Source: a virus. From it: a stretch of 44,350 nt of DNA. Below, in pieces: positions 17,060-43,037 of this stretch. The notes beneath the pieces were generated by a model, which did no database searches, was not told the origin of the DNA, and worked only from the letters and a program-made list of their open reading frames with translations. Position 1 is the first letter of the stretch; every line of letters begins with the position of its first letter. The position numbers were made by a program, and so were the translations under genes. Where the stretch lies: UHGV virus genome UHGV-0187309, one strand, 5' to 3'.

Positions 17060-17144
17060 GATCATACTCTCCGTATGATCCGCACTGAAAAGACGACAAA
17101 GCGGCGACAAAACGGTTACACCGCACTCTATGGAGGTGAAAACT

Positions 17145-17648
17145 ATGGCGCGTAAGAACAAACGCCTGAAAACAGAATACCACAGAGGTCTCGGTTTTGA
17201 TCCGCGAAAGTATATGACTTCCTACTCCCACCAAACTCGCTGTGAATCAATTCCGACTCCCGACCGTGCTCCAAAGCGCGGCGATATCTGGTTTGCGCGG
17301 CTCGGCACACATCCGAATTCCAGTGTGCAGGGCGGCACCCGTCCCGTTATCATCATTTCTAACGACCTCGGCAACGAACACGCTGACACCGTCAATGTTG
17401 TGCCGATGACCAGACACCTGAAAAAGCCGGAGCTGCCTTGTCACACTCCGCTTTCTCCCGGCAGCATTACCGATAGCAGACAGCCGCTTGAACTGTCAAT
17501 GGTGCTGGCGGAGCAGCTCACAACTGTCAGCAAGAACGCACTTCGCTATTATGCAGGTCATATTTCCGATGACGAAGCTATGAACCGCATCGAAACCGCT
17601 GTTATTGCGCAGCTCAGTCTTGAAAGGAGATATTCCAAATGCCTGTGA
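17145..17648 (+). CDS. MazF/PemK-like endoribonuclease-fold protein with ~45 aa N-terminal extension
   Basis: KRGDIWFARLGTHPNSSVQGGTRPVIIISNDLGNEHADTVNVVPMT matches the PemK/MazF core pattern (GDIW...G.EQ.G.RPV.V.S...N....V.V.P.T); GGAGGTGA RBS. Confidence 0.65.
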   Translation: MARKNKRLKTEYHRGLGFDPRKYMTSYSHQTRCESIPTPDRAPKRGDIWFARLGTHPNSSVQGGTRPVIIISNDLGNEHADTVNVVPMTRHLKKPELPCHTPLSPGSITDSRQPLELSMVLAEQLTTVSKNALRYYAGHISDDEAMNRIETAVIAQLSLERRYSKCL

Positions 17649-20068: not shown

Positions 20069-20374
20069 AAGTAGACTTTTCTCCGTATTTACGCTGTTTT
20101 CCGCAGTTGGGGCAGCGTGGGGCAAGTTTTTTCGGTGGTTATTATTATTACTTCTCTTTATATATATTACTATTTTTACTTGCCCCTACTTGCCCCAAAT
20201 AAATAAAAACAATAGAAAAGATAAGAAGAATAGAGGATTTTCACTGATTTGAACCATTACCCATTTTGCACTGTTTTGAACCTTGCCCGATGCTGTCACT
20301 GACAAAGAGTGTGTAAGCGACAAAGCGTGGCAAGGTCAAAATCCAATAAACAATCATACAGGAGGAACACGAAT

Positions 20375-21469
20375 ATGAGAATCATTACTTCAGAACAGGT
20401 ATCCGCAGGACATCCCGACAAGATCTGTGACCAAATCGCGGATGCCATCGTGACAGACTGCCTTCAGCATGACCGCAGCAGTCGTGTTGCGATAGAGTGT
20501 CTTTTCAAGAACCGCTGTCTTGTGATCGCCGGTGAGCTGACCAGTACCCATGAGCCGGACTACAAGGCTCTGGTGCAGCAGGTGTTCGACCGTATCAACA
20601 ACGGCGGAGCTGAGAACAGCGATGCGGGACTTGACTACAAGCTGGACTTCACCGCCGATGATCTGGACATTGCGATTCTGGTCGATCACCAGAGCAATGA
20701 CATTGCGCTCGGTGTGAATGTCGGCGGTGCAGGAGATCAGGGTATGATGTACGGCTATGCGACCAACGAAACGCCGGAGATGCTCCCGATCCCCTTCGTG
20801 CTGGCTACCAGATTTCTGGAACTGCTGAAAGCCTACCCCTGCCGTATGCTGAAAGCCGATGCAAAGGCACAGGTCAGCTATGACTATGACAGCGGTCGCA
20901 TTACCACCTTCCTCTGCTCGGTGCAGCATACACACGATGTGGATGTTGAGGACTTCAAGCCCATCATCGAAAAGCTGATGGTGAGAACGGCAACCGAATA
21001 CGGGCTGAATACAGACTTTGCAAAGCTCGTCAACCCGACCGGCAGATTTGTCATAGGCAGTTCCTTTGCGGACTGCGGCGTTACCGGACGCAAGCTCGCC
21101 TGCGATACCTATGGCGGTATCGGGCATATCGGCGGCGGTGCAATGTCCGGCAAAGATCCGTCTAAGGTTGACCGCAGCGGCGCATATGCAGCAAGAAAAA
21201 TCGCAAGGGATATCGTCAGCGCCGGATATTCAGACAAGGCAGAGGTGCAGATCGCATACGCCATCGGTGTGGCAGAGCCCGTATCCGTGTATGTAGAGAC
21301 TTTTGGCACGGAGCATCAGGATACGGAGTTCATCAACCAGTATGTTCGTGAGAATTATGACCTCACGCCGAGGGGAATCATCGAAGGGCTGCATCTGCTC
21401 GATGTGGACTATAACGCCATTTCCGCATACGGACACTTCGGAAAACAGAACCTTCCGTGGGAACTATAA
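20375..21469 (+). CDS. metK: S-adenosylmethionine synthetase
   Basis: GHPDKICDQIADAI, GGGAMSGKDPSKVDRSGAYAAR and overall MetK architecture; AGGAGGA RBS. Confidence 0.9.
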   Translation: MRIITSEQVSAGHPDKICDQIADAIVTDCLQHDRSSRVAIECLFKNRCLVIAGELTSTHEPDYKALVQQVFDRINNGGAENSDAGLDYKLDFTADDLDIAILVDHQSNDIALGVNVGGAGDQGMMYGYATNETPEMLPIPFVLATRFLELLKAYPCRMLKADAKAQVSYDYDSGRITTFLCSVQHTHDVDVEDFKPIIEKLMVRTATEYGLNTDFAKLVNPTGRFVIGSSFADCGVTGRKLACDTYGGIGHIGGGAMSGKDPSKVDRSGAYAARKIARDIVSAGYSDKAEVQIAYAIGVAEPVSVYVETFGTEHQDTEFINQYVRENYDLTPRGIIEGLHLLDVDYNAISAYGHFGKQNLPWEL

Positions 21470-25991: not shown

Positions 25992-26305
25992 GAGCCAGAC
26001 TGAAACCGCCGGGAGATGCTGTCCGCTGCGATGCCTGCGGATGTGCCTTTGTGCCGGAGCCGAAAATGCAGCGTGAGGGAGAGATCGAATACAGCTTCCT
26101 CAACTGTGATTACTGTGGCAAAGCGTATATCGTGTCTGTGACCGATGCCGCACTCCGCCGGAGCATCCGCAAGTACCGGACGCTTGCCGAAAAGCTGAAG
26201 GGCAAGCCGTTGAGTGAAGATACGCTCCGTGAGGTCACGGCGCTGAAGGATGCGAACACAAAAAGAGCCGCAGAGCTGCGGCAGATGTATATTCGGGAGG
26301 GATGA
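25988..26305 (+). CDS. Small zinc-ribbon hypothetical protein
   Basis: CDACGC...CDYCG Cys4; translationally coupled between nrdG and the methyltransferase. Confidence 0.6.
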   Translation: MRARLKPPGDAVRCDACGCAFVPEPKMQREGEIEYSFLNCDYCGKAYIVSVTDAALRRSIRKYRTLAEKLKGKPLSEDTLREVTALKDANTKRAAELRQMYIREG

Positions 26306-26306
26306 G

Positions 26307-27578
26307 ATGAAAACAGCAGAACTTCGCATGATCCCTGTCTCGGAGCTGAAGCCTGCGGAATACAATCCGCGTAAAAAGCTGAAGCCCGGCGACAAGGAAT
26401 ACGAGAAGATCAAAAACAGCATCGAGGAATTCGGCTTTGCCGACCCGCTTGTTGTCAACGCCGACATGACGATCATCGGCGGACACCAGAGACTGACCGT
26501 AGCAACGGCGCTCGGTTACACGGAAGTTCCGTGTGCGGTGGTGGACATCGACAAAGTCCGTGAGAAGGCACTGAACATTGCGCTGAATAAGATCACGGGT
26601 GCATGGGACGAGAATCTTCTGGCGGAACTTCTCGAAGATATCCAGAGCAGCGATTTCGACCTCGGCAAGACCGGCTTTGATCCGCCGGAGATCGAGCAGC
26701 TTTTCAATGCCGTTCATGACAAGCAGGTCAGTGAGGACAGCTTCGATGTGGAGGAGGAGCTGCAAAAGCCGACATTCTCGCAGCCGGGAGATATCTGGAT
26801 TCTCGGCAGGCACAAAGTCATCTGCGGCGATAGTACAATCGCAGAGACATACACCAAGCTGATGGACGGGCAGAAGGCAAACCTCGTCCTGACCGATCCT
26901 CCGTACAATGTGGATGTTGAGGAAACTGCCGGAAAGATCATGAATGACAACATGAGCGACAGTGATTTCTATAGCTTCCTGCTTTCCGCTTACAAGTGTA
27001 TGTATGACAGTCTTGCCGATGACGGCAGCATTTATGTATGGCACGCCGACACCGAGGGGCTGAACTTCCGCAGAGCGTTCAAGGAGGCAGGCTTCCAGCT
27101 TTCTGGCTGCTGTATCTGGAAGAAGAATTCTCTGGTGCTGGGCAGAAGCCCCTATCAGTGGATTCATGAGCCGTGTCTCTTCGGGTGGAAACAGAAGGGC
27201 AAGCATCAGTGGTATGCCGACCGCAAGCAGACAACTGTATGGGAGTATGACAAGCCCAAGAGCAGCCCCGATCATCCGACCACAAAGCCTATCCCGCTGA
27301 TGGCGTACCCGATCAAGAACAGCACCATGACCAACGGCATCGTTCTCGATCCGTTCCTCGGCAGCGGTTCGACACTGATCGCCTGTTGCGAGACAGACCG
27401 TGTTTGTCGGGGCATCGAGCTTGATCCGAAGTTCGTGGATGTCATTGTCAAGAGGTATCTGGCATGGTGCCAAGAGAAGCAGACCGCCGAGGTCGCATAT
27501 GTCATTCGTGATGGACAGAAGCTCACCTATGAGGAGGCTATCGCAGCGATGCCGCAGGGCGGTGATGCAGTTGAGTGA
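26307..27578 (+). CDS. ParB-like nuclease-domain / DNA amino-methyltransferase fusion (N6-adenine or N4-cytosine)
   Basis: N-terminal ParB-like segment (IPVSELKPAEYNPRK...GGHQR); methyltransferase motif IV TDPPY and motif I DPFLGSGST near the C-terminus. Confidence 0.85.
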   Translation: MKTAELRMIPVSELKPAEYNPRKKLKPGDKEYEKIKNSIEEFGFADPLVVNADMTIIGGHQRLTVATALGYTEVPCAVVDIDKVREKALNIALNKITGAWDENLLAELLEDIQSSDFDLGKTGFDPPEIEQLFNAVHDKQVSEDSFDVEEELQKPTFSQPGDIWILGRHKVICGDSTIAETYTKLMDGQKANLVLTDPPYNVDVEETAGKIMNDNMSDSDFYSFLLSAYKCMYDSLADDGSIYVWHADTEGLNFRRAFKEAGFQLSGCCIWKKNSLVLGRSPYQWIHEPCLFGWKQKGKHQWYADRKQTTVWEYDKPKSSPDHPTTKPIPLMAYPIKNSTMTNGIVLDPFLGSGSTLIACCETDRVCRGIELDPKFVDVIVKRYLAWCQEKQTAEVAYVIRDGQKLTYEEAIAAMPQGGDAVE

Positions 27579-28350
27579 TGTGAAGTGTGTATTATATCAC
27601 GACAACTTCCAAAACTTCAAAGGCTACAGCATCCCGAAAGCGCAGCTCGTCATCGCTGACATCCCGTACAACATCGGCGGCGATTTTTACGCAAGCCGCC
27701 CCGACTGGTATGTGGACGGTGACAATCAGAACGGCGAAAGCAGCAAAGCACATAAGGCGGCATTCCATACAGATTACAGCTTTAACATTGCTGAATACTT
27801 CGCCTTCTGCAACCGACTGCTCAAAAAAGAGCCGCCAAAAGGTGAAAAGGATGCGCCGTGCATGATCGTGTTCTGTGCCTTTCAGCAGATACCGGAAGTC
27901 ATCCGGCAGGCGGAGAAATACGGCTTCAAGAAGTATCAGTTTTTGTGTTTTATGAAGAATTACAGTCCGCAGGTGTTGAAGGCGAACATGAGGATCGTGG
28001 GCGCAACGGAATACGCTCTGGTGCTGTACCGGGGCAAGCTGCCGAAATTCCGAAACACGGATGAGAATGGCAAACACCACATGATCTTCGACCATTTTGA
28101 CTGGATGCGGGACGGCAAGGATATCCCGAAGATACATCCTTCGCAGAAGCCGGTAAATCTCCTGAAACGGCTGATCGGGATATTTACCGACGAGGGTGAT
28201 GTGGTCATCGATCCCTGCGCCGGTTCCGGCTCAACGCTGCGTGCGGCGAGGGAGCTTGGCAGACACAGCTACGGCTTTGAAGTCAGCCGGGATTTTTATA
28301 ATAAAGCCTGTGAACTGATGCTTGGGGAGGATACCGATGACGAAGCATGA
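27565..28350 (+). CDS. DNA amino-methyltransferase (N6-adenine or N4-cytosine)
   Basis: ADIPYN (DPPY-like motif IV), C-terminal DPCAGSGST motif I; start ATG 27565 overlapping the upstream gene. Confidence 0.8.
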   Translation: MQLSDVKCVLYHDNFQNFKGYSIPKAQLVIADIPYNIGGDFYASRPDWYVDGDNQNGESSKAHKAAFHTDYSFNIAEYFAFCNRLLKKEPPKGEKDAPCMIVFCAFQQIPEVIRQAEKYGFKKYQFLCFMKNYSPQVLKANMRIVGATEYALVLYRGKLPKFRNTDENGKHHMIFDHFDWMRDGKDIPKIHPSQKPVNLLKRLIGIFTDEGDVVIDPCAGSGSTLRAARELGRHSYGFEVSRDFYNKACELMLGEDTDDEA

Positions 28351-28582
28351 ATGTGCGGTCGTGACCGCTTACACAGAGATTTCTATGCTCAAGGGCGACG
28401 ATCTGAAATATCTGTATGACTATCTTTCCGGCTTTATCGGCAGACCGGTGTATACACACGAGATTTCTGCTGTGGTGATGGCTTACAGAGAGCAGATCAG
28501 GGAGGACTTCCTCGATCTGTGCAGGAACGCAAAGGAGGCGGATGATGGATCAGAAACACTTGACTCTCGGCAGCTTATTTGA
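28337..28582 (+). CDS. Small hypothetical protein
   Basis: 81 aa ORF from ATG 28337; overlaps both neighbouring genes; no recognisable motif. Confidence 0.45.
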   Translation: MTKHECAVVTAYTEISMLKGDDLKYLYDYLSGFIGRPVYTHEISAVVMAYREQIREDFLDLCRNAKEADDGSETLDSRQLI

Positions 28583-31145
28583 CGGCTCCGGTGGCTTTCC
28601 GCTTGGCGGCATCCTTGCAGGGATCGAGCCGAAGTGGAGCAGCGAAATTGAACCATTCCCGGTGCTTGTCACGCACAAGCGGCTGCCGCAGGTGAAGCAC
28701 TACGGCGATGTATCCAAACTGAACGGAGCAGAGCTTCCGCCGGTGGATATCATCACCTTCGGCAGCCCGTGTCAGGATCTGTCCATAGCGGGCAAGCGCG
28801 CCGGAATCCATGACGGTGATCGGTCAAACCTGTTCTTTCAGGCGATCCGCATCATCAAAGAAATGAGGGATGCAACAAATGGACGATATCCGCGATACTG
28901 CGTCTGGGAAAATGTCCCCGGCGCTTTCTCATCCAACGGAGGAAACGACTTCAAGGCTGTCCTCGAAGCAGTTATCGGAGTTAAAGAAAAAGGGATCGAG
29001 GTGCCTGCGCCTGAAAATCACAGATGGGCAAAATCAGACGTATATCTGGGAGACGGATGGAGCGTGGCTTACCGAGTTTTCGATGCTCAATACTGGGGTG
29101 TCCCCCAACGCAGAGCAAGAATCTACCTTGTCGCAGATCTTGCTGGTGGAAGTGCCGGAGAAGTATTATTTAAGTCCGAAGGCGTGTCTGGGTATACTCC
29201 GCAGGGCTTCCGTGCGTGGCAAGGAGCTGCCGGAGGTGCTGAAGAAGGCACTGGAGAGACAGGCGGGCGGTCTGACGCTGGAGGTGGAACCCTCTGCCTG
29301 AATACACAGGGCAACAGCGGCGTCGGCATCACCGAGAACAAGGCTCTCGCACTGGTCGCACAGGATCATGGCAATCATCCGGCTGTGCTTCATGCGGTCG
29401 GTATCGACGGCTACAATGCTGCGGTCACCGATGATACGGCAGCAACGCTTGGTGTGAACTGCGGAATGTCCACAGGCAGAAACGGTGTCCTGCAGGCGGC
29501 GGGATTTTCCACAGAACACAGTGCAAAAGCAAGGAGCATCGGCTACGAGGAAGAGGTATCTCCCACACTTCGAGCCGGTGTTGTTCCGGCGGCAATGGAG
29601 TTATATGAAAATCATGGGCAGGACAGCAGATTCAGAGGACCTTTGGATGTAGCACAGCCTGTGACTGCTACCTACGGCATGGGCGGCAACAATCAGCCGC
29701 TTGTGGTAGAGAACAATCCCACGGACGGCAGAGCGAAGATCAATCCCGACGGTGTGTTTCAGACGCTCTGCGGACGAGCCGGAACAGGCGGAAACAACAC
29801 GCCGCTTGTTGCTGAACCGGTCACGCTGAAAATCAGGTCGGGATGTGAGGGCGGTGGCAAGGGTGCTTTATGGCAGACCGACAAGTCTGCTACGCTCGGC
29901 ACAAACAATGACCAGAGTGTATTTGTTCCGTTCGTCAAGGGAACACGTCCGCACTCTGCTGAAGAGGGGCAAACATGGAAACCCGGCGAGGTCGCCAATA
30001 CACTGAATACCTTTGATGTCGGTGAAAGTCGCTGCAATGAACTTGTGGTGGAAGAGCCGCAGATCAGGGCTTTCGGTGTATGCAGCAAGCATTCCAATGC
30101 GATGATGTCCGACAATCCGCACAGCGGATTCTATGAGGCGACCACAAGCAGAACGCTCGACCAAAGTGGTGGAAATTCTGTGACATCGAATCAGGGCGGC
30201 ATCTGCGTGGTAGCACCTGCGCCTGAAACCTTCGATGTGCGTTTCACATCAGACGGTACAAAAAACGCTCGTGGGCATTGCTATCCGACAGACATCTCCC
30301 GATGCCTTGATACGAGCGAGGGATCGCCAGACTCGAATCACGGCGGTGTCGCTGTGGTGGCTCTTGAACCGGGGGCTGCATCACGTGTCGGCGGTCATGT
30401 ATACAGTGACGGCAAAAGCGGTACGCTTCGAGCCAATGCCGGCGATAATCAGCAGGCTGTTGTGGTCGCCGAGCCGGAGACCTATGCTCTGCAAGGCTCG
30501 ATGATCGGTCGTGCCGACAAGAACGGTCCGCAGGGTGATGGCATCAACGAGGATGTGTGCTTTACGCTCAATACATCGGACAGACACGCCATTGCCGCAC
30601 CTGATCCGTCCTTCACAATTTCCCGCGACAACCATTTTGCCGTTTCGGAGGATGTATCCGTTACAGCCGTGGCAAGAGGCCCTGCGGCAGTCGCAGCACC
30701 GGCAGACCACTATTGCACCAGTAAGAATTCGCATCATACGGTCGCCGCCCATGAGCAGGCAAACACGCTGGTCGCTTCCGACTGGAAGGATCCGCCGCTT
30801 GTGAACGACCTTCCGAATGACGAGCCAGTATATATCGTTCGCCGCTTGACTCCGGTTGAGTGCGCCAGATTGCAGGGATTCCCTGACTGGTGGTGTGCCG
30901 ACCTTGCAATTACTGATCCTTCCGATGAGGAGATCGCCTTCTGGACGGAGGTCTGGGAGACATGGCGGCAGGTCACAAATCCCAAGGGCAAGCCGAAAAC
31001 GGAAAAGCAGATCCGCAAATGGCTGGCTGATCCGTACACGGATTCAGCGGAGTACAAGCTGTGGGGCAACGGTGTCTCAGAGCCGGTCGTATACTTCGTG
31101 CTTTCCGGCATCGCATGGGCAGCGCAGAGAGATACACAAAAGTGA
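28542..31145 (+). CDS. DNA cytosine-5 methyltransferase with an unusually long, internally repetitive variable (target-recognition) region
   Basis: Motif I LFDGSGGF, motif IV GSPCQDLS, motif VI ENVPG in first ~130 aa; motifs IX/X (RRLTPVECARLQGFPDWW ... LWGNGVSEPVVYF) only in the last ~100 aa; ~600 aa in between with recurring TL-containing modules. True start may be ATG 28545. Confidence 0.85.
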   Translation: MMDQKHLTLGSLFDGSGGFPLGGILAGIEPKWSSEIEPFPVLVTHKRLPQVKHYGDVSKLNGAELPPVDIITFGSPCQDLSIAGKRAGIHDGDRSNLFFQAIRIIKEMRDATNGRYPRYCVWENVPGAFSSNGGNDFKAVLEAVIGVKEKGIEVPAPENHRWAKSDVYLGDGWSVAYRVFDAQYWGVPQRRARIYLVADLAGGSAGEVLFKSEGVSGYTPQGFRAWQGAAGGAEEGTGETGGRSDAGGGTLCLNTQGNSGVGITENKALALVAQDHGNHPAVLHAVGIDGYNAAVTDDTAATLGVNCGMSTGRNGVLQAAGFSTEHSAKARSIGYEEEVSPTLRAGVVPAAMELYENHGQDSRFRGPLDVAQPVTATYGMGGNNQPLVVENNPTDGRAKINPDGVFQTLCGRAGTGGNNTPLVAEPVTLKIRSGCEGGGKGALWQTDKSATLGTNNDQSVFVPFVKGTRPHSAEEGQTWKPGEVANTLNTFDVGESRCNELVVEEPQIRAFGVCSKHSNAMMSDNPHSGFYEATTSRTLDQSGGNSVTSNQGGICVVAPAPETFDVRFTSDGTKNARGHCYPTDISRCLDTSEGSPDSNHGGVAVVALEPGAASRVGGHVYSDGKSGTLRANAGDNQQAVVVAEPETYALQGSMIGRADKNGPQGDGINEDVCFTLNTSDRHAIAAPDPSFTISRDNHFAVSEDVSVTAVARGPAAVAAPADHYCTSKNSHHTVAAHEQANTLVASDWKDPPLVNDLPNDEPVYIVRRLTPVECARLQGFPDWWCADLAITDPSDEEIAFWTEVWETWRQVTNPKGKPKTEKQIRKWLADPYTDSAEYKLWGNGVSEPVVYFVLSGIAWAAQRDTQK

Positions 31146-31222
31146 ACGCATAACGTGCCCGTTTTGAAACGATGAAACGAAAACTCCCGAATCTGCGTTA
31201 CTTTGATTTCGCAAAGATACAC

Positions 31223-31405
31223 TCATTCAGATTTCTTGTCTCCGCCAAGCTCGATCTTTCCGTGCTTTTCCTCATATTTTTCAATGCAGTCACGGATCAG
31301 GATCAGAACCTGACTGTTGGCAGAACGACCTTCGTAATCGGCAACAACGTGAAGTTTATCAAGCATCTCCTGTTCGATACGGATGGATACACTTTTAATA
31401 GCCAT
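31223..31405 (-). CDS. Ribbon-helix-helix (CopG/Arc/MetJ-like) DNA-binding protein
   Basis: 60 aa; MAIKSVSIRIEQEMLDKL N-terminal beta-strand plus helices typical of RHH; only minus-strand gene in a long plus-strand block. Confidence 0.7.
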   Translation of the reverse strand: MAIKSVSIRIEQEMLDKLHVVADYEGRSANSQVLILIRDCIEKYEEKHGKIELGGDKKSE

Positions 31406-31518
31406 AAAACAACTTCCTTTCAGATATATTATGACTTTATTTTAGACCTGTTTTGTGGTATAATGTTTGAAATGGATATAAAGTGTATCTAAAATATATC
31501 TATAAGAAGTTGTACGAT

Positions 31519-31857
31519 ATGAAAATAGCAATTATTGGCTCACGGGGACTTCATGTGAATGACCTTGAACGGTATCTTCCGGAAGATGTCACAGAAATCG
31601 TCAGCGGAGGAGCAAGGGGCATTGATTCGGATGCGCGGGCATACGCACAGGCACACGGCATTCCGCTGAAGGAGTTTCTGCCGGATTATGAACGCTTCGG
31701 CAGGAGCGCCCCGCTGAAACGGAATCTTGAGATCATCGCTTATGCCGATGTGGTGCTTGCATTCTGGGACGGACAGTCACGCGGCACGAAATATGTGATA
31801 GACCATTGCCGGGAACAGCACGTTCCGGTCAGGGTTTTCGCACCGAGAAAGAAATAG
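31519..31857 (+). CDS. SLOG-superfamily (DprA/LOG-like, DUF2493-like) small Rossmann-fold protein
   Basis: KIAIIGSRG ... VSGGARGIDSDA ... AFWDGQSRGT pattern shared with DprA/LOG-type domains; extended -10 TGGTATAAT promoter just upstream. Confidence 0.65.
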   Translation: MKIAIIGSRGLHVNDLERYLPEDVTEIVSGGARGIDSDARAYAQAHGIPLKEFLPDYERFGRSAPLKRNLEIIAYADVVLAFWDGQSRGTKYVIDHCREQHVPVRVFAPRKK

Positions 31858-31861
31858 TAAT

Positions 31862-31935
31862 AAAGAAGCCATGCAGCAAATTGTGAACATTCTGATACTA
31901 AATCAGATGTTCTGCCGCAGGGCTTCTTTCTATTC
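31862..31935 (+). terminator. Long hairpin terminator after the SLOG gene
   Basis: AAAGAAGCC ... GGCTTCTTTC inverted repeat with inner CTGAT/ATCAG hairpin, followed by T-rich tract. Confidence 0.5.
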
Positions 31936-31991
31936 TGTACTATGCACAATCTAAAGGGCAGACACGCCCCGTACATTCTCCGTTTTACAGT

Positions 31992-32035
31992 CTTGCATTC
32001 CGGGGCAAAAGACGGTAATATGTGACTACGAAAAC
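31992..32035 (+). promoter_or_regulatory. Cassette promoter P1 (CTTGCA-18-TAATAT) with conserved GTGAC downstream box
   Basis: First of nine near-identical promoter units; precedes ATG 32090. Confidence 0.6.
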
Positions 32036-32089
32036 GCCGCAGCCCAACGCACAAGGCTGAGGGGCGGCAGTAAAAACGGAGGTAATCAT

Positions 32090-32998
32090 ATGGAAATCAA
32101 GTTCAATATTGAAAAGAGCCAGCGCAAGGCACTGGCACAGAAAATCGGCGAGCTGACAGGAGCAGAGGTCAAGTACCTCGGTGTACCGGGCTGCAGATAC
32201 CAGATCGACTTCTTCACCCTGGACAAAAACGCAGTCCTCAGTTTCAGCGACCGCATCGACACAGATATCGTGGAGAAGGTACTGAATGGGCTTGCAGAGG
32301 CAGGATATGAAAGCAAAACAGTAGCACCGCCGGAAGAAACGGATGCTTCGGCTGAATCAGAGCCGGATATCCCTGACGAACCGAGCAGCGGATTTCCGCT
32401 GCTCGCAAGCATCAGCTTCCCGATTGCAGAGCACACGGTGCAGAGCCTTACAAACCTTATCTGCATGATCCACTCCCGCGGCGCACTTCTCAGCAAGGCG
32501 ACCGGCGGACAGTTCTTCGCAGACAAGAGCCTCGCCGATGCGATCCTCGATGACAAGACCTTCCGCAGCATCCACGAGCTTATCGCCTACATCAGAGTAT
32601 GGGAGGAAACGAATCCCGAACTGAAGGGCATCCGTTTCGCCGATGACAAGCTGATCTTTGACGGCTTCGGTGCAGCGCAGGATGCCGAAACGGTGCAGAC
32701 CTTCACCAAGCTCGCCACAGCCATGAACAGGATGGCGATCACGCAGAAACGTGTGCAGGCAAAGGATGTCGATGACAGCAACGAAAAGTACGCACTCCGC
32801 ATCTGGCTGATCCGCCTTGGGCTGAACGGCGCAGACTGCAAGGTTGACCGCAAGCGCCTCATGGCTCCGCTTTCCGGACACACCGCATTCCGCAACGATG
32901 CGGAGCGTGTGCGCTGGGAGGCAAAGCAAAAGGCAAAGCGTGATGCTGCCAGAACCGAACTGACCGAGGAGGATGAAAACGATGCAGTTTCCGAATGA
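32090..32998 (+). CDS. Hypothetical protein
   Basis: 302 aa; ACGGAGGTAA RBS; no recognisable motif. Confidence 0.75.
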   Translation: MEIKFNIEKSQRKALAQKIGELTGAEVKYLGVPGCRYQIDFFTLDKNAVLSFSDRIDTDIVEKVLNGLAEAGYESKTVAPPEETDASAESEPDIPDEPSSGFPLLASISFPIAEHTVQSLTNLICMIHSRGALLSKATGGQFFADKSLADAILDDKTFRSIHELIAYIRVWEETNPELKGIRFADDKLIFDGFGAAQDAETVQTFTKLATAMNRMAITQKRVQAKDVDDSNEKYALRIWLIRLGLNGADCKVDRKRLMAPLSGHTAFRNDAERVRWEAKQKAKRDAARTELTEEDENDAVSE

Positions 32999-33230
32999 AA
33001 GACAGCTCAGAGCCTTGCGGGAGCGTTATCCCGCAGGCACCCGCATCCGACTGAAGCATATGGATGACCCTTATGCACCCGTACCGCCCGGCACGGTCGG
33101 CGAGGTTCAGATGGTTGATGACGGCGGCAACATACACATGGTCTGGGAGAATGGCAGAACGCTCTCCCTTATAGACGGTGTCGATGATTTCCAGGTCATT
33201 TCTGACCGCAATGGGGGCTCCGGAAAATAA
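32982..33230 (+). CDS. DUF4314-like small protein
   Basis: PAGTRIRLKHMDDPYAPVPPGTVGEVQMVDDGGNIHMVWENGRTLSLIDGVDDF matches the DUF4314 pattern as I recall it; start at ATG 32982. Confidence 0.65.
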   Translation: MQFPNERQLRALRERYPAGTRIRLKHMDDPYAPVPPGTVGEVQMVDDGGNIHMVWENGRTLSLIDGVDDFQVISDRNGGSGK

Positions 33231-33341
33231 GAGATCCTATTCCATTGTATCCGAGTATACCATAGAATTTCAAGTATATCAAGTGTACACATACACCAGA
33301 TATGAGCAATGTATTTTCCTCGATATTCTGTGGTTTTAGCG

Positions 33342-33402
33342 GCTTGCTATATCCTCCGAAAGACGGTAATATGTGACACAACGGAAGGGCAAACGCCCAC
33401 CG
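33342..33402 (+). promoter_or_regulatory. Cassette promoter P2 (CTTGCT-19-TAATAT) plus conserved leader hairpin
   Basis: TAATATGTGACACAACGGAAGGGCAAACGCCCACCGAAAA leader. Confidence 0.6.
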
Positions 33403-33427
33403 AAAAACCGAATCGGAGGATACCAAA

Positions 33428-34372
33428 ATGACTGAGAAAACCGCACAGCAGATCAACAGAATGAAGGAGCAGACCATCGGGGTTGAGATCGAGATGAACA
33501 ACATCACCCGCAAGGCTGCCGCAAAGCTCGCCGCCGACTTCTTCGGCACGAACCGCTACGAGGACACGGCCTGCCGCAACGGCTACGAAACCTACAGTGC
33601 TTGGGACGCACAGGGACGCGAGTGGAAATTCCAGAAGGACGTCAGCATCGCAGGCCCCGACAGCGAAAAGTGCGAACTGGTCACACCGATCCTGCACTAC
33701 GCAGACATCGAAACCCTGCAGGAGCTTGTGAGAAGGCTCAGAAAGGCAGGAGCGCGCAGTGATTACACGCGGGGATGTGGAGTCCACTGCCACATTGGAG
33801 CCCAGGGACACACACCGCAGAGCCTCAGAAACCTCGCAAACCTTATGGCAAGCCACGAAACCCTGATCGCCGAGGCAATCAGAGTAGACCAGAGCAGAAT
33901 GCACCGCTACTGCAGAACAGTTGACCCGAGATTCCTTGAACAGCTCAACCGCAAAAAGCCCACCACGATGGCACAGCTTGCGGACATCTGGTACGGCGCA
34001 CAGGGCTGCGAATACGGCAGAACCCACCACTACAACGACAGCCGCTATCACATGCTCAACCTCCACGCTACCTTCACCAAAGGCACGGTCGAGTTCAGAC
34101 TTTTCCAGTTCGCACCGCCTTCCAACGGCAAGCAGAACGGGCTCCACGCAGGCAAGCTCAAGAGCTACATTCAGCTCTGCCTCGCAATGAGCCAGATGGC
34201 AAAGGACCTGCGGAGCGCCAGCCCCAAGGAACAGCAGAAGGAAAACAAAAAGTTCGCCATGCGGACTTGGCTGATGAGAATGGGATTCATCGGGGATGAA
34301 TTCGCAACGGCGAGAGAGGTCCTCACTGAGAACCTTACGGGCGACAACAGCTTCCGCTTCGGCAGATCTTAA
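33428..34372 (+). CDS. Putative amidoligase (glutamine-synthetase-like fold, Amidoligase_2-type)
   Basis: 314 aa; GVEIEMNN (ExE motif) and GCGVHCHIGAQGH (HxH motif) as in GS-like amidoligases of phages and conjugative elements; family call from memory. Confidence 0.7.
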   Translation: MTEKTAQQINRMKEQTIGVEIEMNNITRKAAAKLAADFFGTNRYEDTACRNGYETYSAWDAQGREWKFQKDVSIAGPDSEKCELVTPILHYADIETLQELVRRLRKAGARSDYTRGCGVHCHIGAQGHTPQSLRNLANLMASHETLIAEAIRVDQSRMHRYCRTVDPRFLEQLNRKKPTTMAQLADIWYGAQGCEYGRTHHYNDSRYHMLNLHATFTKGTVEFRLFQFAPPSNGKQNGLHAGKLKSYIQLCLAMSQMAKDLRSASPKEQQKENKKFAMRTWLMRMGFIGDEFATAREVLTENLTGDNSFRFGRS

Positions 34373-34636
34373 AGGCCTGCCCTTCGGGGCGGAAGAACAA
34401 GCGGAACGGCACGGCGGCGCACACAGCCGCCACGGTCTCGGCTCTCGCCTCGGTCGGTGCTTCTGCTTCGCAGAGGTTGCCACTGGCAACCCGCACCCCC
34501 GTGTGTGGCGGAAAGGGTATCCTCCGAATCGGTATCCCATCTCAGTCAACCGCGCCACACAGCGCAAATGTAGGCAAGGCATAAAATGCACAACATACGG
34601 CACAGAATCGCCCTCGATGATCTGTTCATTTACCCG

Positions 34637-34666
34637 CTTGATAATGCCGCCGAAATGAGTTAACAT
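34637..34666 (+). promoter_or_regulatory. Cassette promoter P3 (CTTGAT-18-TAACAT)
   Basis: Same -35/18/-10 geometry as other cassette promoters; precedes ATG 34706. Confidence 0.5.
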
Positions 34667-34705
34667 AGCACTACCGCAAGGAAAAAACGCAAAGGAGAAC
34701 ATAGC

Positions 34706-35173
34706 ATGAACAAGAAAAAATACTACATAGCCTACGGCAGCAACCTCAACATCCGCCAGATGCGATTCCGCTGCTCAGGCGCAAAGCCCATCGGCATTTC
34801 CGCGATTCCTGACTACGAACTGCTCTTCAAGGGCAGCAAGACGGGAGCGTACCTCACCATCGAGCCGAAGGACGGCGGGCTTGTTCCGGTCGCCGTGTGG
34901 GAAGTGACAGCCGACGATGAGAAGCACCTCGACATCTACGAGGGCTACCCGAACTTCTACTACAAGAAGGAAGTCCGCCTGCCAATCAGGCTGGCAAACG
35001 GCAAGACCAAAAAGGTCACGGCATTTGTCTACATCATGCACGAGGAGCGTGAGATTGCGATCCCGTCAATGACCTACATCCGCACCTGCGAGGAAGGCTA
35101 CCGCAACTTCGGCTTCGACACCAAGTTCCTTGATGCCGCCTACGAGATCAGCGCAAAGGAGGTACAGCGATGA
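34706..35173 (+). CDS. Gamma-glutamyl cyclotransferase-like (GGCT/AIG2-like) protein
   Basis: N-terminal YYIAYGSNLN signature and YEGYP Glu-containing motif. Confidence 0.8.
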   Translation: MNKKKYYIAYGSNLNIRQMRFRCSGAKPIGISAIPDYELLFKGSKTGAYLTIEPKDGGLVPVAVWEVTADDEKHLDIYEGYPNFYYKKEVRLPIRLANGKTKKVTAFVYIMHEEREIAIPSMTYIRTCEEGYRNFGFDTKFLDAAYEISAKEVQR

Positions 35174-39897: not shown

Positions 39898-40371
39898 ATG
39901 GCTCAGAGAGGCAGAAAACCGACGCCGACAGCAATCAAGGAACTGGAAGGCAATCCCGGAAAACGACCGCTGAATGATGCAGAGCCGAAGCCGGAACGCA
40001 AGGCACCGCCCTGTCCGAAGTGGCTGGAGCCCGAAGCAAAAAAGGAATGGCGCAGGCTGTCAAAGCAACTGGAGCAGATTGGTGTGCTGACCGAGGTCGA
40101 TCAGGCGGCATTCGCATCCTACTGTCAGGCATACGCACGATGGAAAGAAGCCGAGGAATTCATGACCCAGCACGGCACGATCGTAAAAACAAAATCAGGT
40201 TACTGGCAGCAGGTTCCGCAGGTATCCATTGCGCAAACTTATCTGAAGATCATGAACAAGATCGCAGAGCAGTTTGGCCTGACCCCGGCGGCAAGAAGCC
40301 GTATCACTGCCGGCGCAGATATGAAAAACGCTGCCGTTGACGATATGGATGAACTTCTCGGAGGTGGCTGA
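39898..40371 (+). CDS. Terminase small subunit (P27-family-like)
   Basis: MAQRGRKPTPTAIKELEGNPGKRP N-terminus and FGLTPAARSRI near the C-terminus; immediately upstream of and overlapping terminase large subunit. Confidence 0.8.
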   Translation: MAQRGRKPTPTAIKELEGNPGKRPLNDAEPKPERKAPPCPKWLEPEAKKEWRRLSKQLEQIGVLTEVDQAAFASYCQAYARWKEAEEFMTQHGTIVKTKSGYWQQVPQVSIAQTYLKIMNKIAEQFGLTPAARSRITAGADMKNAAVDDMDELLGGG

Positions 40372-43037
40372 TGGCGAGAACGGCAAAGGCAAGAGAAAGA
40401 CCTGCCAACTATCCGAAACTGAAGGATTATAAACCGACACGCTTTATGCTGCCGGAATCGCACTACGATGCGGCAAAGGCTGACCGAGCTGTGCGGTTCA
40501 TCGAGAATCTCTGCCATACCAAAGGACGCTGGGCAGGCAAACCGTTCTGGCTGCTTCCGTGGCAGGAACAGATCATCCGGGATATTTTCGGCATCGTCAA
40601 AGAGGACGATATGCGGCAATTTCGTACCGCCTATGTCGAAATTCCAAAGAAAAATGGGAAGCAGCTTGCACTGGATACACCGATCCCGACTCCGCAGGGA
40701 TTCACCAATATGGGAGATCTGAAGGTCGGAGATACAGTATTCGATGAAAACGGCATTCCGTGCCATGTGGTTGCGAAAAGTCCTGTGGATGATACAGAGC
40801 AAGCCTACAAGCTGACCTTCAAGGACGGCACCTCGATCATTGCCGGGGAAAGGCATCTGTGGAACTGTCAGTATATTTACGGCAAACGCAAGGATGTTCT
40901 CTGGACGACCGGCGAGATCTATCGCAGGACAACGGAATACAGACAGCGTTTTTCCGACAGACCACAGACAAAGCGGGATTCCCTTATCCGAATTCCGGTG
41001 TGCGGTGTCCTTCAGACAGAAGCGGCAGTTTTACCGATTGATCCGTATCTGTACGGCTACTGGCTCGGAAACGGTAATGTGACCATGCCGGAGATCACTG
41101 TTCGGACGGAGGATGTCGAGGATATCATCTCGAATATTCCGTATAAGGTACACAACCGTTATCCGCAGAAATGCGGCGGCAGTGAGATCATAAAGTACAA
41201 TGAACTGAAAGCAGTACTACTTGACAGCTTCCGTGAAAAGAAGATCCGACCAGAATATCTGAGGGCATCCGCAGAGCAGAGATGGGCATTACTGCAAGGG
41301 CTTATGGATTCGGACGGCTGTATCGGCGAACGCAAAGGGCAAAGTGTGTATGTCACAACGCTGCGAGAGCTGGCGCTTTCCGTCAGAGAACTGCTGTGGT
41401 CACTCGGCATCAAAAATGCAGTGAAATGTGAGCCTTCTACACGGCATGGGTGGCCGACCGGCGAGATTTTGTATATCGTCCGTTTTACAACCTTTGATGG
41501 CCAACCGACATCAAGGCTTAAACGCAAAAATACACGCACACAGGCGCGGTTAAAGGAAACTCGCTCCTGTTTTCATTATCTGCTGGATATTCAACCTGTA
41601 AATCATCCTGTAAAAATGCAGTGCATTCAGGTGGACAGTCCGAGTCACCAATATCTCGCAGGACCGTCATTTGTGCCTACGCACAACAGTGAGCTTGCAG
41701 CGGCAATTGCACTGTATCTGCTCTACGCCGACAACGAGCCGTCTGCTGAGGTCTACGGCGCTGCTGCTGATCGTGGGCAGGCATCCATTGTATTCGATGT
41801 CGCCAAAAGAATGGTTGAGATGACACCGGCACTTCTGAAACGCTCAAAAATCATGGCGGCGACAAAGCGTCTGGTGAATTACAGTAATGTTGGCTTTTAT
41901 CAGGTGCTTTCAGCGGAAGTCGGTACAAAGCACGGATTGAATGTATCCGGTCTGGTTTTGGATGAACTTCATGCCCAACCGAACCGCAGCCTTGTGGATG
42001 TTCTCACAAAGGGTTCCGGTGATGCCCGTACTCAGCCGCTGTACTTCCTGATCACAACCGCCGGAACGGATCGCAACAGCATCTGCTACGAGTATCACAC
42101 GAAAGCAAAAGATATTCTGGACGGCAGGCGCATTGATCCGTCCTTCTATCCTGTGATCTACGGCTTGAACGATGATGACGACTGGAACGCAGAGGAGTCA
42201 TGGTATAAGGCAAATCCCTCGCTCGGATACACTATCGCCATCGACCGAGTCCGCGATGCTCACCGGGAAGCCCTTACAAATCCCGCTGAAGAAAATGTAT
42301 TCCGTCAGCTGAGGCTTGACCAGTGGGTAGGCAGTGCGGTGGCATGGATTCCGGAGCATATCTACGACAGGGGCAATCTTCCGATCGACCTCGAAAAGCT
42401 CCGGGGACGGGAGTGCTACGCAGGTCTTGACCTATCCAGCACATCGGATATCACGGCATTTGTGCTGGTGTTCCCTCCGCTGCATGACGGCGAGAAATAC
42501 ATCGTTGTCCCGCACTTCTGGCTGCCGAGAGAAACGCTCGATTTGCGAGTACGGCGAGACCATGTTCCCTACGATGTATGGGAGCGCATGGGATTATTTC
42601 ATATCACCGAGGGCAATGTGGTCGATTACAATTTCGTGCGGAAAACGATCAACGAGCTGCACACGATGTACAACATCAAGGAAATTGCTGCCGACCGCTG
42701 GAATGCCACACAGCTTATCACAGACCTTGAGGGAGACGGATTTACCGTTGTTCCGATGGGTATGGGCTTCAAGGATATGTCCCCGCCGATGAAGGAACTG
42801 TACAAGCTCATACTCGAGGGGCAGTTTATCCACGGCGGCAACCCTGTACTCCGCTGGATGGCAGGAAATGTGGTCGCTGAAATTGATGCAGCGGAGAACA
42901 TCAAACCAAGTAAAAAGAAAAGTACAGAAAAGATTGACGGTATCGTGGCATGGATCATGGCACTTGACCGCTGCATCCGCCACGAAATGCAGGGCAGTGT
43001 CTATGACGAACCCGGCCACGATCTTGTGGTCATCTGA
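40371..43037 (+). CDS. Terminase large subunit interrupted by an intein in the Walker A P-loop
   Basis: N-extein ends YVEIPKKNGK and C-extein resumes SELAAAIALYLLYADNEPSAEVYGAA, together restoring PKKNGKS; downstream VLDELH Walker B and nuclease domain. Confidence 0.9.
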   Translation: MARTAKARERPANYPKLKDYKPTRFMLPESHYDAAKADRAVRFIENLCHTKGRWAGKPFWLLPWQEQIIRDIFGIVKEDDMRQFRTAYVEIPKKNGKQLALDTPIPTPQGFTNMGDLKVGDTVFDENGIPCHVVAKSPVDDTEQAYKLTFKDGTSIIAGERHLWNCQYIYGKRKDVLWTTGEIYRRTTEYRQRFSDRPQTKRDSLIRIPVCGVLQTEAAVLPIDPYLYGYWLGNGNVTMPEITVRTEDVEDIISNIPYKVHNRYPQKCGGSEIIKYNELKAVLLDSFREKKIRPEYLRASAEQRWALLQGLMDSDGCIGERKGQSVYVTTLRELALSVRELLWSLGIKNAVKCEPSTRHGWPTGEILYIVRFTTFDGQPTSRLKRKNTRTQARLKETRSCFHYLLDIQPVNHPVKMQCIQVDSPSHQYLAGPSFVPTHNSELAAAIALYLLYADNEPSAEVYGAAADRGQASIVFDVAKRMVEMTPALLKRSKIMAATKRLVNYSNVGFYQVLSAEVGTKHGLNVSGLVLDELHAQPNRSLVDVLTKGSGDARTQPLYFLITTAGTDRNSICYEYHTKAKDILDGRRIDPSFYPVIYGLNDDDDWNAEESWYKANPSLGYTIAIDRVRDAHREALTNPAEENVFRQLRLDQWVGSAVAWIPEHIYDRGNLPIDLEKLRGRECYAGLDLSSTSDITAFVLVFPPLHDGEKYIVVPHFWLPRETLDLRVRRDHVPYDVWERMGLFHITEGNVVDYNFVRKTINELHTMYNIKEIAADRWNATQLITDLEGDGFTVVPMGMGFKDMSPPMKELYKLILEGQFIHGGNPVLRWMAGNVVAEIDAAENIKPSKKKSTEKIDGIVAWIMALDRCIRHEMQGSVYDEPGHDLVVI
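40662..41687 (+). mobile_element. Intein (about 342 aa) with LAGLIDADG-like homing endonuclease region, class-3-like features
   Basis: Begins QLALDTPI (block A-like, Gln not Cys/Ser at position 1), block B GTSIIAGERHLW, LAGLIDADG-like LLQGLMDSDGCIGE, block F/G MQCIQVDSPSHQYLAGPSFVPTHN then Ser. Confidence 0.65.

Follow-up and report, generated by a model that had tools for sequence, protein, structure and literature searches.

A putative multispecific cytosine-5 methyltransferase with about a dozen TL-centred cassettes in a temperate phage genome

Analysing the whole 44,350-nucleotide stretch of the virus genome UHGV-0187309 (hereafter the window), we found a cytosine-5 (C5) DNA methyltransferase in which the region between catalytic motifs VIII and IX, as far as its sequence can tell, is an array of separable cassettes centred on a TL dipeptide and not one domain, because single cassettes are naturally deleted, inserted and permuted among its homologs. 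The open reading frame (ORF) at 28542..31145 (+) encodes 867 aa and matches Pfam PF00145 (E = 3e-37, in three stretches), exactly where an original prediction had placed such an enzyme. We consider it likely that the protein is an orphan phage multispecific methyltransferase that takes the principle of the SPR/phi3T enzymes to an extreme, with one catalytic core that would serve ~11-13 cassettes resembling target-recognition domains (TRDs). Since the 1980s, multispecific C5 methyltransferases have counted among the curiosities of textbooks, known from a handful of Bacillus phages and with two to about five recognition domains. What would be new here is the expansion of this known multi-TRD design to about a dozen cassettes, and its occurrence in an abundant family of gut phages; our searches of the published literature turned up no earlier account of C5 enzymes with so many TRDs in gut phages.

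The cassette array and its natural variation

The gap between motifs VIII and IX measures 571 aa, compared with 179-272 aa in four classical multispecific enzymes (M.SPRI, M.Phi3TI, M.Rho11sI, and M.H2I) and 116 aa in the monospecific Escherichia coli enzyme Dcm, so that the intervening region is indeed several-fold longer than a single TRD, as had been claimed. All eight TL-containing peptides named in the original prediction were located in this insert (at aa 250, 302, 342, 408, 451, 487, 628, and 675), with three more TL dipeptides at aa 428, 538, and 742. TL is the most over-represented dipeptide of the insert, with 11 observed versus 2.25 expected, a count that none of 20,000 composition-preserving shuffles reached, and TL followed by a hydrophobic strand was observed 8 times versus 0.64 expected. 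The insert is otherwise rich in glycine (13%) and alanine (11%), with little leucine (5%) and isoleucine (2%) and few large hydrophobic residues overall. We parsed it into ~13 units of 33-54 aa (Table 1). The earlier description of the region as repetitive held at the level of short motifs, through the TL enrichment and through a leave-one-out profile test in which 9 of the 13 modules equalled or outscored no fewer than 199 of 200 shuffles of their own sequence, but not at the level of longer similarity, since self-BLASTP of the whole protein returned no internal repeat segment pair.

At the DNA level, direct repeats fall at module ends and junctions, and they do so in register. Cassettes 4, 5, 10, and 13 each end in a G(M/T)GGNN(Q/T)PLV-type sequence that holds a copy of the repeat D1, all four in register and, in cassettes 4 and 5, spaced by exactly 105 nt; D3 pairs cassettes 8 and 9 at a distance of 147 nt and D6 pairs cassettes 11 and 12 at 99 nt. 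Some cassettes therefore appear to be old tandem duplicates.

Natural variation among homologs gave the clearest view of the modular build. Sixteen close homologs, sharing 85-97% identity with the query at the positions that could be aligned, vary by clean indels of 33-43 aa that each correspond to one module (aa 284-318, 352-386, ~425-462, 463-504, 610-644, and 689-721, that is, cassettes 2, 4, 6, 7, 10, and 12), and one of them, P0096, carries an additional NTL-containing cassette ahead of motif IX. Upon extending the comparison to a 139-sequence alignment, we obtained 27 distinct patterns of cassette presence and absence among the 138 homologs: cassettes 1, 3, 5, 6, 8, 11, and 13 are each present in at least 97% of them, and the accessory cassettes occur at the frequencies given in Table 1. 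Where present, the cassettes show an identity of 0.56-0.95, compared with 0.69-0.79 for the catalytic core. The order of the cassettes also changes. The 925-aa protein P0503, with 17 TL dipeptides, arranges its query-type cassettes as 6-2-10-8-3-5-7, cassette 5 precedes cassette 4 in P0241, cassette 9 precedes cassette 8 in P0463 and P0410, and members of the P0121 subfamily carry cassette 2 but lack cassette 1. Single-cassette indels, the many presence patterns, and permuted order thus bear out, by natural variation, the proposal of a tandem modular array.

The same regularity extends across the family. Among 65 representatives with mutual identity of at most 50%, the insert length follows 37.5 times the TL count plus 134 aa (r = 0.81), and therefore one TL corresponds to ~37 aa of insert family-wide; in these proteins, 279 TL dipeptides were observed versus 76 expected from composition. 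Protein lengths in the family range from ~400 to 970 aa, several of the 50%-identity representatives carrying long N-terminal extensions or insertions. The TL-centred 26-mers of 237 homologs cluster into ~16 recurrent cassette types, each found in 14 to 234 proteins. We saw no clear excess of cassette identity far above core identity, the sign of recent cassette transfer between divergent backbones. The best PHROG match, PHROG 38038 (E = 1e-139), is labeled 'unknown function' and covers aa 560-865 only (the C-terminal cassettes and motifs IX-X), a hint that such long methyltransferases are split or truncated in many phage annotations. Separately, an intein with Hint and homing-endonuclease domains (PF05204, PF13403) interrupts the close homolog P0037 (1159 aa, 83% identity).

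Table 1. Parts of the methyltransferase and related genes in the window. Bare percentages refer to the 138 homologs of the 139-sequence alignment; aa numbers follow the 867-aa ORF.
Feature	Position	Strand	Details
N-terminal catalytic lobe, motifs I, IV, VI, VIII	28542..29138, aa 1-199	+	AlphaFold2 (AF2) pLDDT (per-residue confidence) 70-96; Foldseek top match M.HhaI, E = 1e-12
Conserved leader/linker of variable region	29139..29246, aa 200-235	+	occupancy 1.00 and identity 0.70 in the 139-sequence alignment; predicted helical
Cassette 1 (GGGTLCLNTQGNSG...)	29247..29390, aa 236-283	+	TL at aa 250; 97%; leave-one-out non-significant
Cassette 2 (AATLGVNCGMSTGRNG), accessory	29391..29495, aa 284-318	+	17%; cleanly missing in P0036, P0044, P0076, P0099, P0119, P0120
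Cassette 3 (SIGYEEEVSPTLRAGVVPAA), core cassette	29496..29594, aa 319-351	+	99%, identity 0.87; leave-one-out z = 6.2
Cassette 4 (TATYGMGGNNQPLVV), accessory, paralog of cassette 5	29595..29708, aa 352-389	+	14%; missing in 9/16 close homologs; P0003 lacks it; D1 repeat
Cassette 5 (FQTLCGRAGTGGNNTPLVA), core cassette	29709..29813, aa 390-424	+	100%
Cassette 6 (VTLKIRSGCEGGGKG...SATLGTNNDQ; two TL)	29814..29927, aa 425-462	+	one-unit loss in P0119, P0120; leave-one-out z = 3.4
Cassette 7 (VANTLNTFDVGESRCNELVV), accessory	29928..30053, aa 463-504	+	17%; missing in 8/16 close homologs; P0012 lacks it
Cassette 8 (TSRTLDQSGGNSVTSNQGGICVVA), core cassette	30054..30215, aa 505-558	+	99%, identity 0.80; D3 repeat with cassette 9
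Cassette 9 (ISRCLDTSEGSPDSNHGGVAVVAL; CL instead of TL), accessory, paralog of cassette 8	30216..30365, aa 559-608	+	30%; D3 repeat
Cassette 10 (GGHVYSDGKSGTLRANAGDNQQAVVVAE), accessory	30366..30473, aa 609-644	+	58%; missing in P0096; leave-one-out z = 9.1
Cassette 11 (NEDVCFTLNTSDRHAIA), core cassette	30474..30605, aa 645-688	+	homolog of the classical shared C-terminal TRD; in 234/237 homologs
Cassette 12 (SEDVSVTAVARGPAAVAAP; without TL), accessory, degenerate paralog of cassette 11	30606..30704, aa 689-721	+	43%; missing in P0002, P0036, P0096, P0120; D6 repeat
Cassette 13 (QANTLVASDWKDPPLV), directly before motif IX	30705..30836, aa 722-765	+	100%
C-terminal catalytic part, motifs IX (RRLTPVECARLQGFP) and X (GNGV)	30837..31145, aa 766-867	+	AF2 pLDDT 68-93
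S-adenosylmethionine (SAM) synthetase, ~5 kb upstream of the three methyltransferases	20309..21469	+	PF00438, PF02772, PF02773
ParB_N + N6/N4 amino-methyltransferase, first of the methyltransferase cluster	26250..27578	+	PF02195, PF01555; same order on an independent 94-kb contig
Second N6/N4 amino-methyltransferase	27577..28350, start approximate (ORF from 27400; 257 aa on a related contig)	+	PF01555, E = 6e-27
DUF7736 small protein, overlapping the C5 methyltransferase start	28322..28582	+	PF24875, E = 2e-12; PHROG 13999, unknown function

The catalytic core and its kinship with known enzymes

Motifs I, IV, and VI had been predicted near the N terminus and motifs IX and X near the C terminus, and we located them at aa 13-125 and aa 767-845, respectively, setting their positions by alignment to M.HhaI, the best solved relative. 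Motif I, the SAM-binding FxGxG, reads FDGSGG (aa 13-18) and aligns with FAGLGG of M.HhaI; motif IV reads SPCQ (aa 75-78, within GSPCQDLS at aa 74-81) and includes the catalytic cysteine; and motif VI is ENV (aa 123-125), with motifs IV and VI invariant in 66 diverse homologs. Motif VIII (QRRARIY, aa 189-195, with QxRxR as QRRAR at aa 189-193), motif IX of the RxLTPxE type (RRLTPVECARLQGFP, aa 767-781), and motif X (GNGV, aa 842-845) follow in canonical order. Translation probably starts at the second ATG, at 28545, yielding 866 aa, because a ribosome-binding site (AAAGGAGG, GGAGG) lies at 28531-28538, an identical protein of 866 aa exists in the databases (P0001, 100% identity), and homologs open with MD or MK. 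Structure prediction with AF2 on 139 diverse sequences gave a confident core (pLDDT 70-96 over aa 1-224 and 769-867), for which Foldseek returned M.HhaI and M.HaeIII as top matches (E = 1e-12 to 1e-10 over ~200 columns), the core alone being informative; a model built on a 37-sequence alignment was discarded at a mean pLDDT of 28. As all C5 motifs are intact, including the cysteine of SPCQ, and the core model superposes on M.HhaI, catalytic competence of the putative enzyme is plausible.

Likeness of the insert to the TRDs of the SPR/phi3T enzymes, which had been proposed, was borne out by a profile built solely from the query's 13 modules. Applied to the variable regions of the GenBank records of the classical enzymes, it matched two TL-centred units in M.Phi3TI, four in M.Rho11sI, four in M.H2I, and two plus one weak in M.SPRI, while shuffled versions of these regions averaged 0.01-0.05 matches and none of 300 reached the observed summed score. 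Pairwise, cassette 11 (DVCFTLNTSDRHAIA) aligned with the C-terminal TRD common to all four enzymes (EPAFTVNTIDRHGVA) at z = 6.0-6.9 (0 of 300 shuffles), and BLASTP gave the same pairing at E = 0.003, so that the proposed alignment with the M.SPRI and M.Phi3TI domains yields a clear counterpart for this cassette. We take this shared C-terminal TRD to confer GGCC specificity in the classical enzymes. Calling cassette 11 'GGCC-type' would express homology only and assign no target. Weaker similarities (z = 3-4) link cassettes 10, 5, 7, and 13 to other classical units: cassette 10 resembles the M.SPRI/M.H2I unit GNVYNSSGLSPTITTNKGEG (z ~4), cassette 5 the M.H2I unit SPDGVSPTLTTMGGGHREPKIA, which is also found in M.Phi3TI (z = 3.0), cassette 7 the classical C-terminal TRD (z = 3.3-3.7), and cassette 13 HTLSASDWR of M.SPRI (z = 3.2). 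Most cassettes other than cassette 11 show weak or no pairwise similarity to classical units. As far as it is computable, the interpretation put forward by the original prediction is supported.

These matches bear on a reading in which the insert is a single domain of another kind, or a protein-interaction region, in a monospecific enzyme, with the TL recurrences incidental. Searches of Pfam, of the Protein Data Bank (PDB), and by structure gave no match covering the insert, which would suit this idea, as would the lack of repeats by self-BLAST. Yet the TL enrichment is beyond the reach of the shuffles, the module profile finds the TL-centred units of the classical enzymes, and an interdependent single domain cannot be reconciled with the indels, the permutations, and the length scaling. 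Cassette indels, profile matches, and permutations largely refute the single-domain reading, and we regard it as highly improbable.

The comparison with known systems also marks out what is particular to the present enzyme. Like it, the SPR/phi3T-type enzymes are phage orphans with one core and contiguous TL-centred TRDs between motifs VIII and IX. TL is described as lying at the center of a TRD, and Trautner's group relied on it to define TRD boundaries in multispecific enzymes (PMC2413257); temperate Bacillus phages are described to array multiple TRDs in tandem within one polypeptide for several specificities (PMC12707154, PMC8936443), with the same anti-restriction logic (PMC12707154). The SPR/phi3T-type enzymes have 2-4 units in 179-272 aa, in contrast to 11-13 cassettes in 571 aa here, and are hosted by Bacillus, whereas the present family is found in gut Clostridia (Oscillospiraceae, Ruminococcus, Lachnospiraceae) and Streptococcus and, unlike them, shows a combinatorial cassette content and order in natural populations. 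The query core is 31% identical to M.SPRI and lies outside the close clade of the SPbeta group (probing with an M.SPRI-like N-terminal sequence gives 90-91% for M.Rho11sI and M.H2I and 59% for M.Phi3TI), and it therefore represents a separate PF00145 lineage. In the monospecific enzymes M.HhaI, M.HaeIII, and Dcm, the catalytic fold and motifs are the same, with one TRD of ~80-120 aa (116 aa in Dcm); the cassettes resemble the TL-containing C-terminal half of such a single TRD (consensus in PMC2413257).

Further multispecific C5 enzymes with several TRDs are M.BssHII and M.phiBssHII from a Bacillus stearothermophilus prophage. M.BssHII, with about five specificities, held the earlier record. 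The TRDs of M.phiBssHII reportedly lie at separated locations (Sethmann 1999), whereas those of the present enzyme all lie between motifs VIII and IX; compared by description, the latter has at least twice as many TRD-like units.

Proposed specificity and activity of the cassettes

In the mechanism that we favor, each active cassette would pair in turn with the single core and recognize a short target of its own, in which a cytosine would be flipped out and methylated; the scheme is modeled on the classical enzymes. During lytic growth, progeny phage DNA would thus come to carry 5-methylcytosine (5mC) at several different sites, and the C5 enzyme together with its two neighboring amino-methyltransferases, fed by the phage SAM synthetase, could allow escape from many Type II restriction systems of the Clostridia hosts. 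Gain, loss, duplication, and shuffling of cassettes would retune the spectrum of protection between phage lineages.

We quantified palindrome avoidance in the phage DNA. GGCC occurs 23 times in the window versus 172 expected (observed/expected ratio, O/E, of 0.13), CTAG (0.17), ACGT (0.31), and CGCG (0.40) are likewise avoided, CCWGG has 7 copies in 44 kb, and eight 6-mer palindromes have none at all. Palindromes that are not avoided in the window include GCNGC (347 copies), AGCT (1.03), GATC (0.92), TCGA (0.90), GCGC (0.76), and CCGG (0.69). Across 58 related phage loci (L007-L086), median O/E values were 0.33 for GGCC, 0.19 for GGWCC, and 0.03 for CTAG, next to 0.86 for GCNGC, 0.85 for GCGC, and 1.11 for CCNGG. 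Palindrome avoidance of this strength indicates heavy restriction pressure on the phage. For CCWGG, O/E ranged from 0.02 to 1.65 across these loci, tracking both clade and cassette repertoire, and phages with the cassette type SPTLTKQNAGGNQRMP had a CCWGG O/E of 1.19 compared with 0.54 in those without it (p = 5e-8, 58 phages). The Dcm (CCWGG) TRD showed no significant similarity to cassette 13 and a marginal one only to cassette 3. Because this comparison was null or marginal, no target sequence is assigned to any cassette.

Several observations weigh against reading the array as a set of working recognition domains. GGCC is avoided in the window and in all 58 relatives, even though cassette 11 is nearly universal; either the specificity of this cassette has changed or methylation leaves selection against GGCC in place, and the universal avoidance argues against assuming that cassette 11 still gives GGCC protection. 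The assignment of SPTLTKQNAGGNQRMP to CCWGG had to be rejected, since cassette types co-vary by clade and exceptions exist. A mechanism in which twelve cassettes share one catalytic cleft also faces the difficulty of steric conflict between them. The AF2 model of the insert, with a pLDDT of ~25 and almost no secondary structure, supports neither a compact single domain nor a particular fold of the cassettes, although its low confidence may stem in part from composition and from the noisy alignment of non-orthologous cassettes, and neither the module profile nor the insert matched any PDB sequence even at E <= 10. Four of the 13 modules (cassettes 1, 5, 8, and 9) are individually non-significant in the leave-one-out test, cassette 12 lacks a TL and looks like a degenerate copy of cassette 11, and in distant homologs the identity of cassettes 1, 10, 12, and 13 drops to 0.30-0.43, compared with 0.69 for the core. 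The latter four may be fast-evolving or differently constrained, misaligned, or decaying.

The main rival explanation, which we consider rather unlikely for the array as a whole, takes up several of these points: the array would be mostly fossil, with one to three active cassettes and few specificities, the rest being pseudo-TRDs or spacers left by duplication and recombination. It would account for the degenerate cassette 12, for the modules that fail the leave-one-out test, for the low identity of cassettes 1, 10, 12, and 13, and for the strong avoidance of GGCC and CCWGG in the window, as if these sites were unprotected. A precedent may exist in M.Rho11sI (L003): its TRD at aa 336-346 is nearly the same as in M.H2I and M.Phi3TI but reads TTMGEGHRE instead of their TTMGGGHRE. 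Inactive 'pseudo-domains' were reportedly described in these enzymes (Lange et al. 1991), and the substitution is consistent with them, indicating that a single change can silence a TRD-like unit. What speaks against a fossil array is that cassettes 3, 6, 8, and 11 keep an identity of 0.70-0.82 in distant homologs whose core is ~0.69 identical, matching or exceeding core conservation, which is unexpected of relics; at least these four cassettes are therefore unlike decaying ones. Furthermore, seven cassettes are retained in nearly all homologs, and the accessory ones are lost as exact units and not eroded. We thus disfavor relic status for cassettes 3, 6, 8, and 11, while it is plausible for the fast-diverging ones.

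Avoidance patterns also bear on a third reading, namely that of a methyltransferase with relaxed or near-absent specificity, in which the G-, N-, and T-rich array would act as a flexible DNA-binding tail and most cytosines in short contexts would be methylated. The insert is poor in hydrophobic residues and predicted to be unstructured, the SAM synthetase suggests a large methyl demand, and non-specific adenine methyltransferases of phages and plasmids do exist, M.EcoGII among them (cited in PMC12707154). Such a tail would need neither cassette-specific conservation nor TRD-like TL spacing nor unit-wise gain and loss, and blanket protection is at odds with some C-containing palindromes being strongly avoided while others are not. 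We consider this very unlikely.

Returning to the multispecific reading, a wider idea can be put forward only tentatively: phages of gut Clostridia might hold a natural combinatorial library in which 25 or more minimal TRD cassettes (33-54 aa) undergo shuffling, duplication, and exchange on a shared C5 scaffold, giving rise to enzymes with at least 10 independent specificities (up to 17 TL units in the 925-aa relative). If this were true, a single gene would confer near-universal Type II protection in the most prevalent human gut phage order, and the library would amount to a dictionary of short peptide cassettes versus DNA targets. Should the cassettes be active, one enzyme could explain how a temperate phage passes across the dense restriction barriers of gut Clostridia, and the heavy 5mC marking of phage DNA would be relevant to methylation-based host linking and to sequencing bias in viromes. 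The natural series of deletions, insertions, and permutations could then reveal the rules by which ~40 residues specify a DNA target, with a view to programmable methyltransferases.

Genomic setting and distribution of the family

The window represents a temperate gut phage of the Ca. Heliusvirales type and neither chromosomal nor plasmid DNA. It encodes a helix-turn-helix + S24 (CI/LexA-type) repressor, a thymidine kinase, SRAP, and a DUF2800 nuclease, as well as an Enc34-type single-stranded DNA-binding protein, a family-A DNA polymerase, an SNF2 helicase, MazF, a D5/NrS-1 primase-helicase, and NrdD/NrdG; this gene content ruled out a conjugative element. The C5 methyltransferase sits between the replication and packaging genes, with phage genes on both sides, and follows the amino-methyltransferases listed in Table 1. 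The phage SAM synthetase is a plausible supply of methyl donor for all three methyltransferases. Among the neighbors (methyltransferases, DUF7736, Arc-like, SLOG, and amidoligase genes), we found no restriction nuclease, and the enzyme is therefore an orphan methyltransferase.

An identical methyltransferase in the same gene order is present on a 94-kb metagenomic contig. Public names are generic, such as 'Cytosine specific methyltransferase [Caudoviricetes sp.]' for DAZ37254.1 and an entry in a metagenome-assembled genome of Ruminococcus sp. Among annotated genomes, the nearest are those of Ca. Heliusvirales gut phages (PV0364xx), whose enzymes are 40-50% identical over the full length, and shorter relatives occur in Streptococcus Javan prophages. 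The family has thousands of members, with over 33,000 representative clusters matching at E <= 1e-3 and relatives encoded on at least 595 viral contigs of IMG/VR. A survey of Heliusvirales reported a C5 methyltransferase in 67% of genomes and a SAM synthetase in 58.9%, with the order present in 82.1% of individuals (PMC11283538). The K00558 'auxiliary metabolic gene' of these phages evidently belongs to the same family; the survey counts it among generic methyltransferases or metabolic genes and leaves the multi-cassette architecture undescribed (PMC11283538). In one Heliusvirales phage, NatCom_17901 (PV036423), a 'phosphoadenosine phosphosulfate reductase' gene (L001, 11126-11986) lies between the amino-methyltransferase and the multi-cassette C5 methyltransferase, occupying the place of the second N6/N4 methyltransferase and DUF7736 in the window.

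Downstream of the C5 methyltransferase, an AT-rich gap at 31146-31500 (GC content 0.46, versus ~0.55 on either side) may be a regulatory boundary between transcription units, and a gene for a 60-aa Arc-like ribbon-helix-helix protein lies within it (31223-31405, -). The cluster that follows (31483-35173, +) encodes a SLOG/YspA-like protein (31483-31857), a 302-aa protein with an 'amidoligase' PHROG match (32090-32998), an Amidoligase_2 protein (33428-34372), and a GGACT/AIG2 cyclotransferase (34706-35173), and this SLOG-amidoligase-GGACT set resembles peptide-ligation or modification systems of phages. The MazF/PemK toxin gene (17130-17648, +) is located between the SNF2 helicase and the D5 primase-helicase, with no antitoxin identified for it. 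Within the large terminase TerL (40371-43037, +; 888 aa), a LAGLIDADG_3 domain at aa 303-369 precedes the ATPase and nuclease domains; it is probably an intein or homing-endonuclease insertion, and a related contig shows it too.

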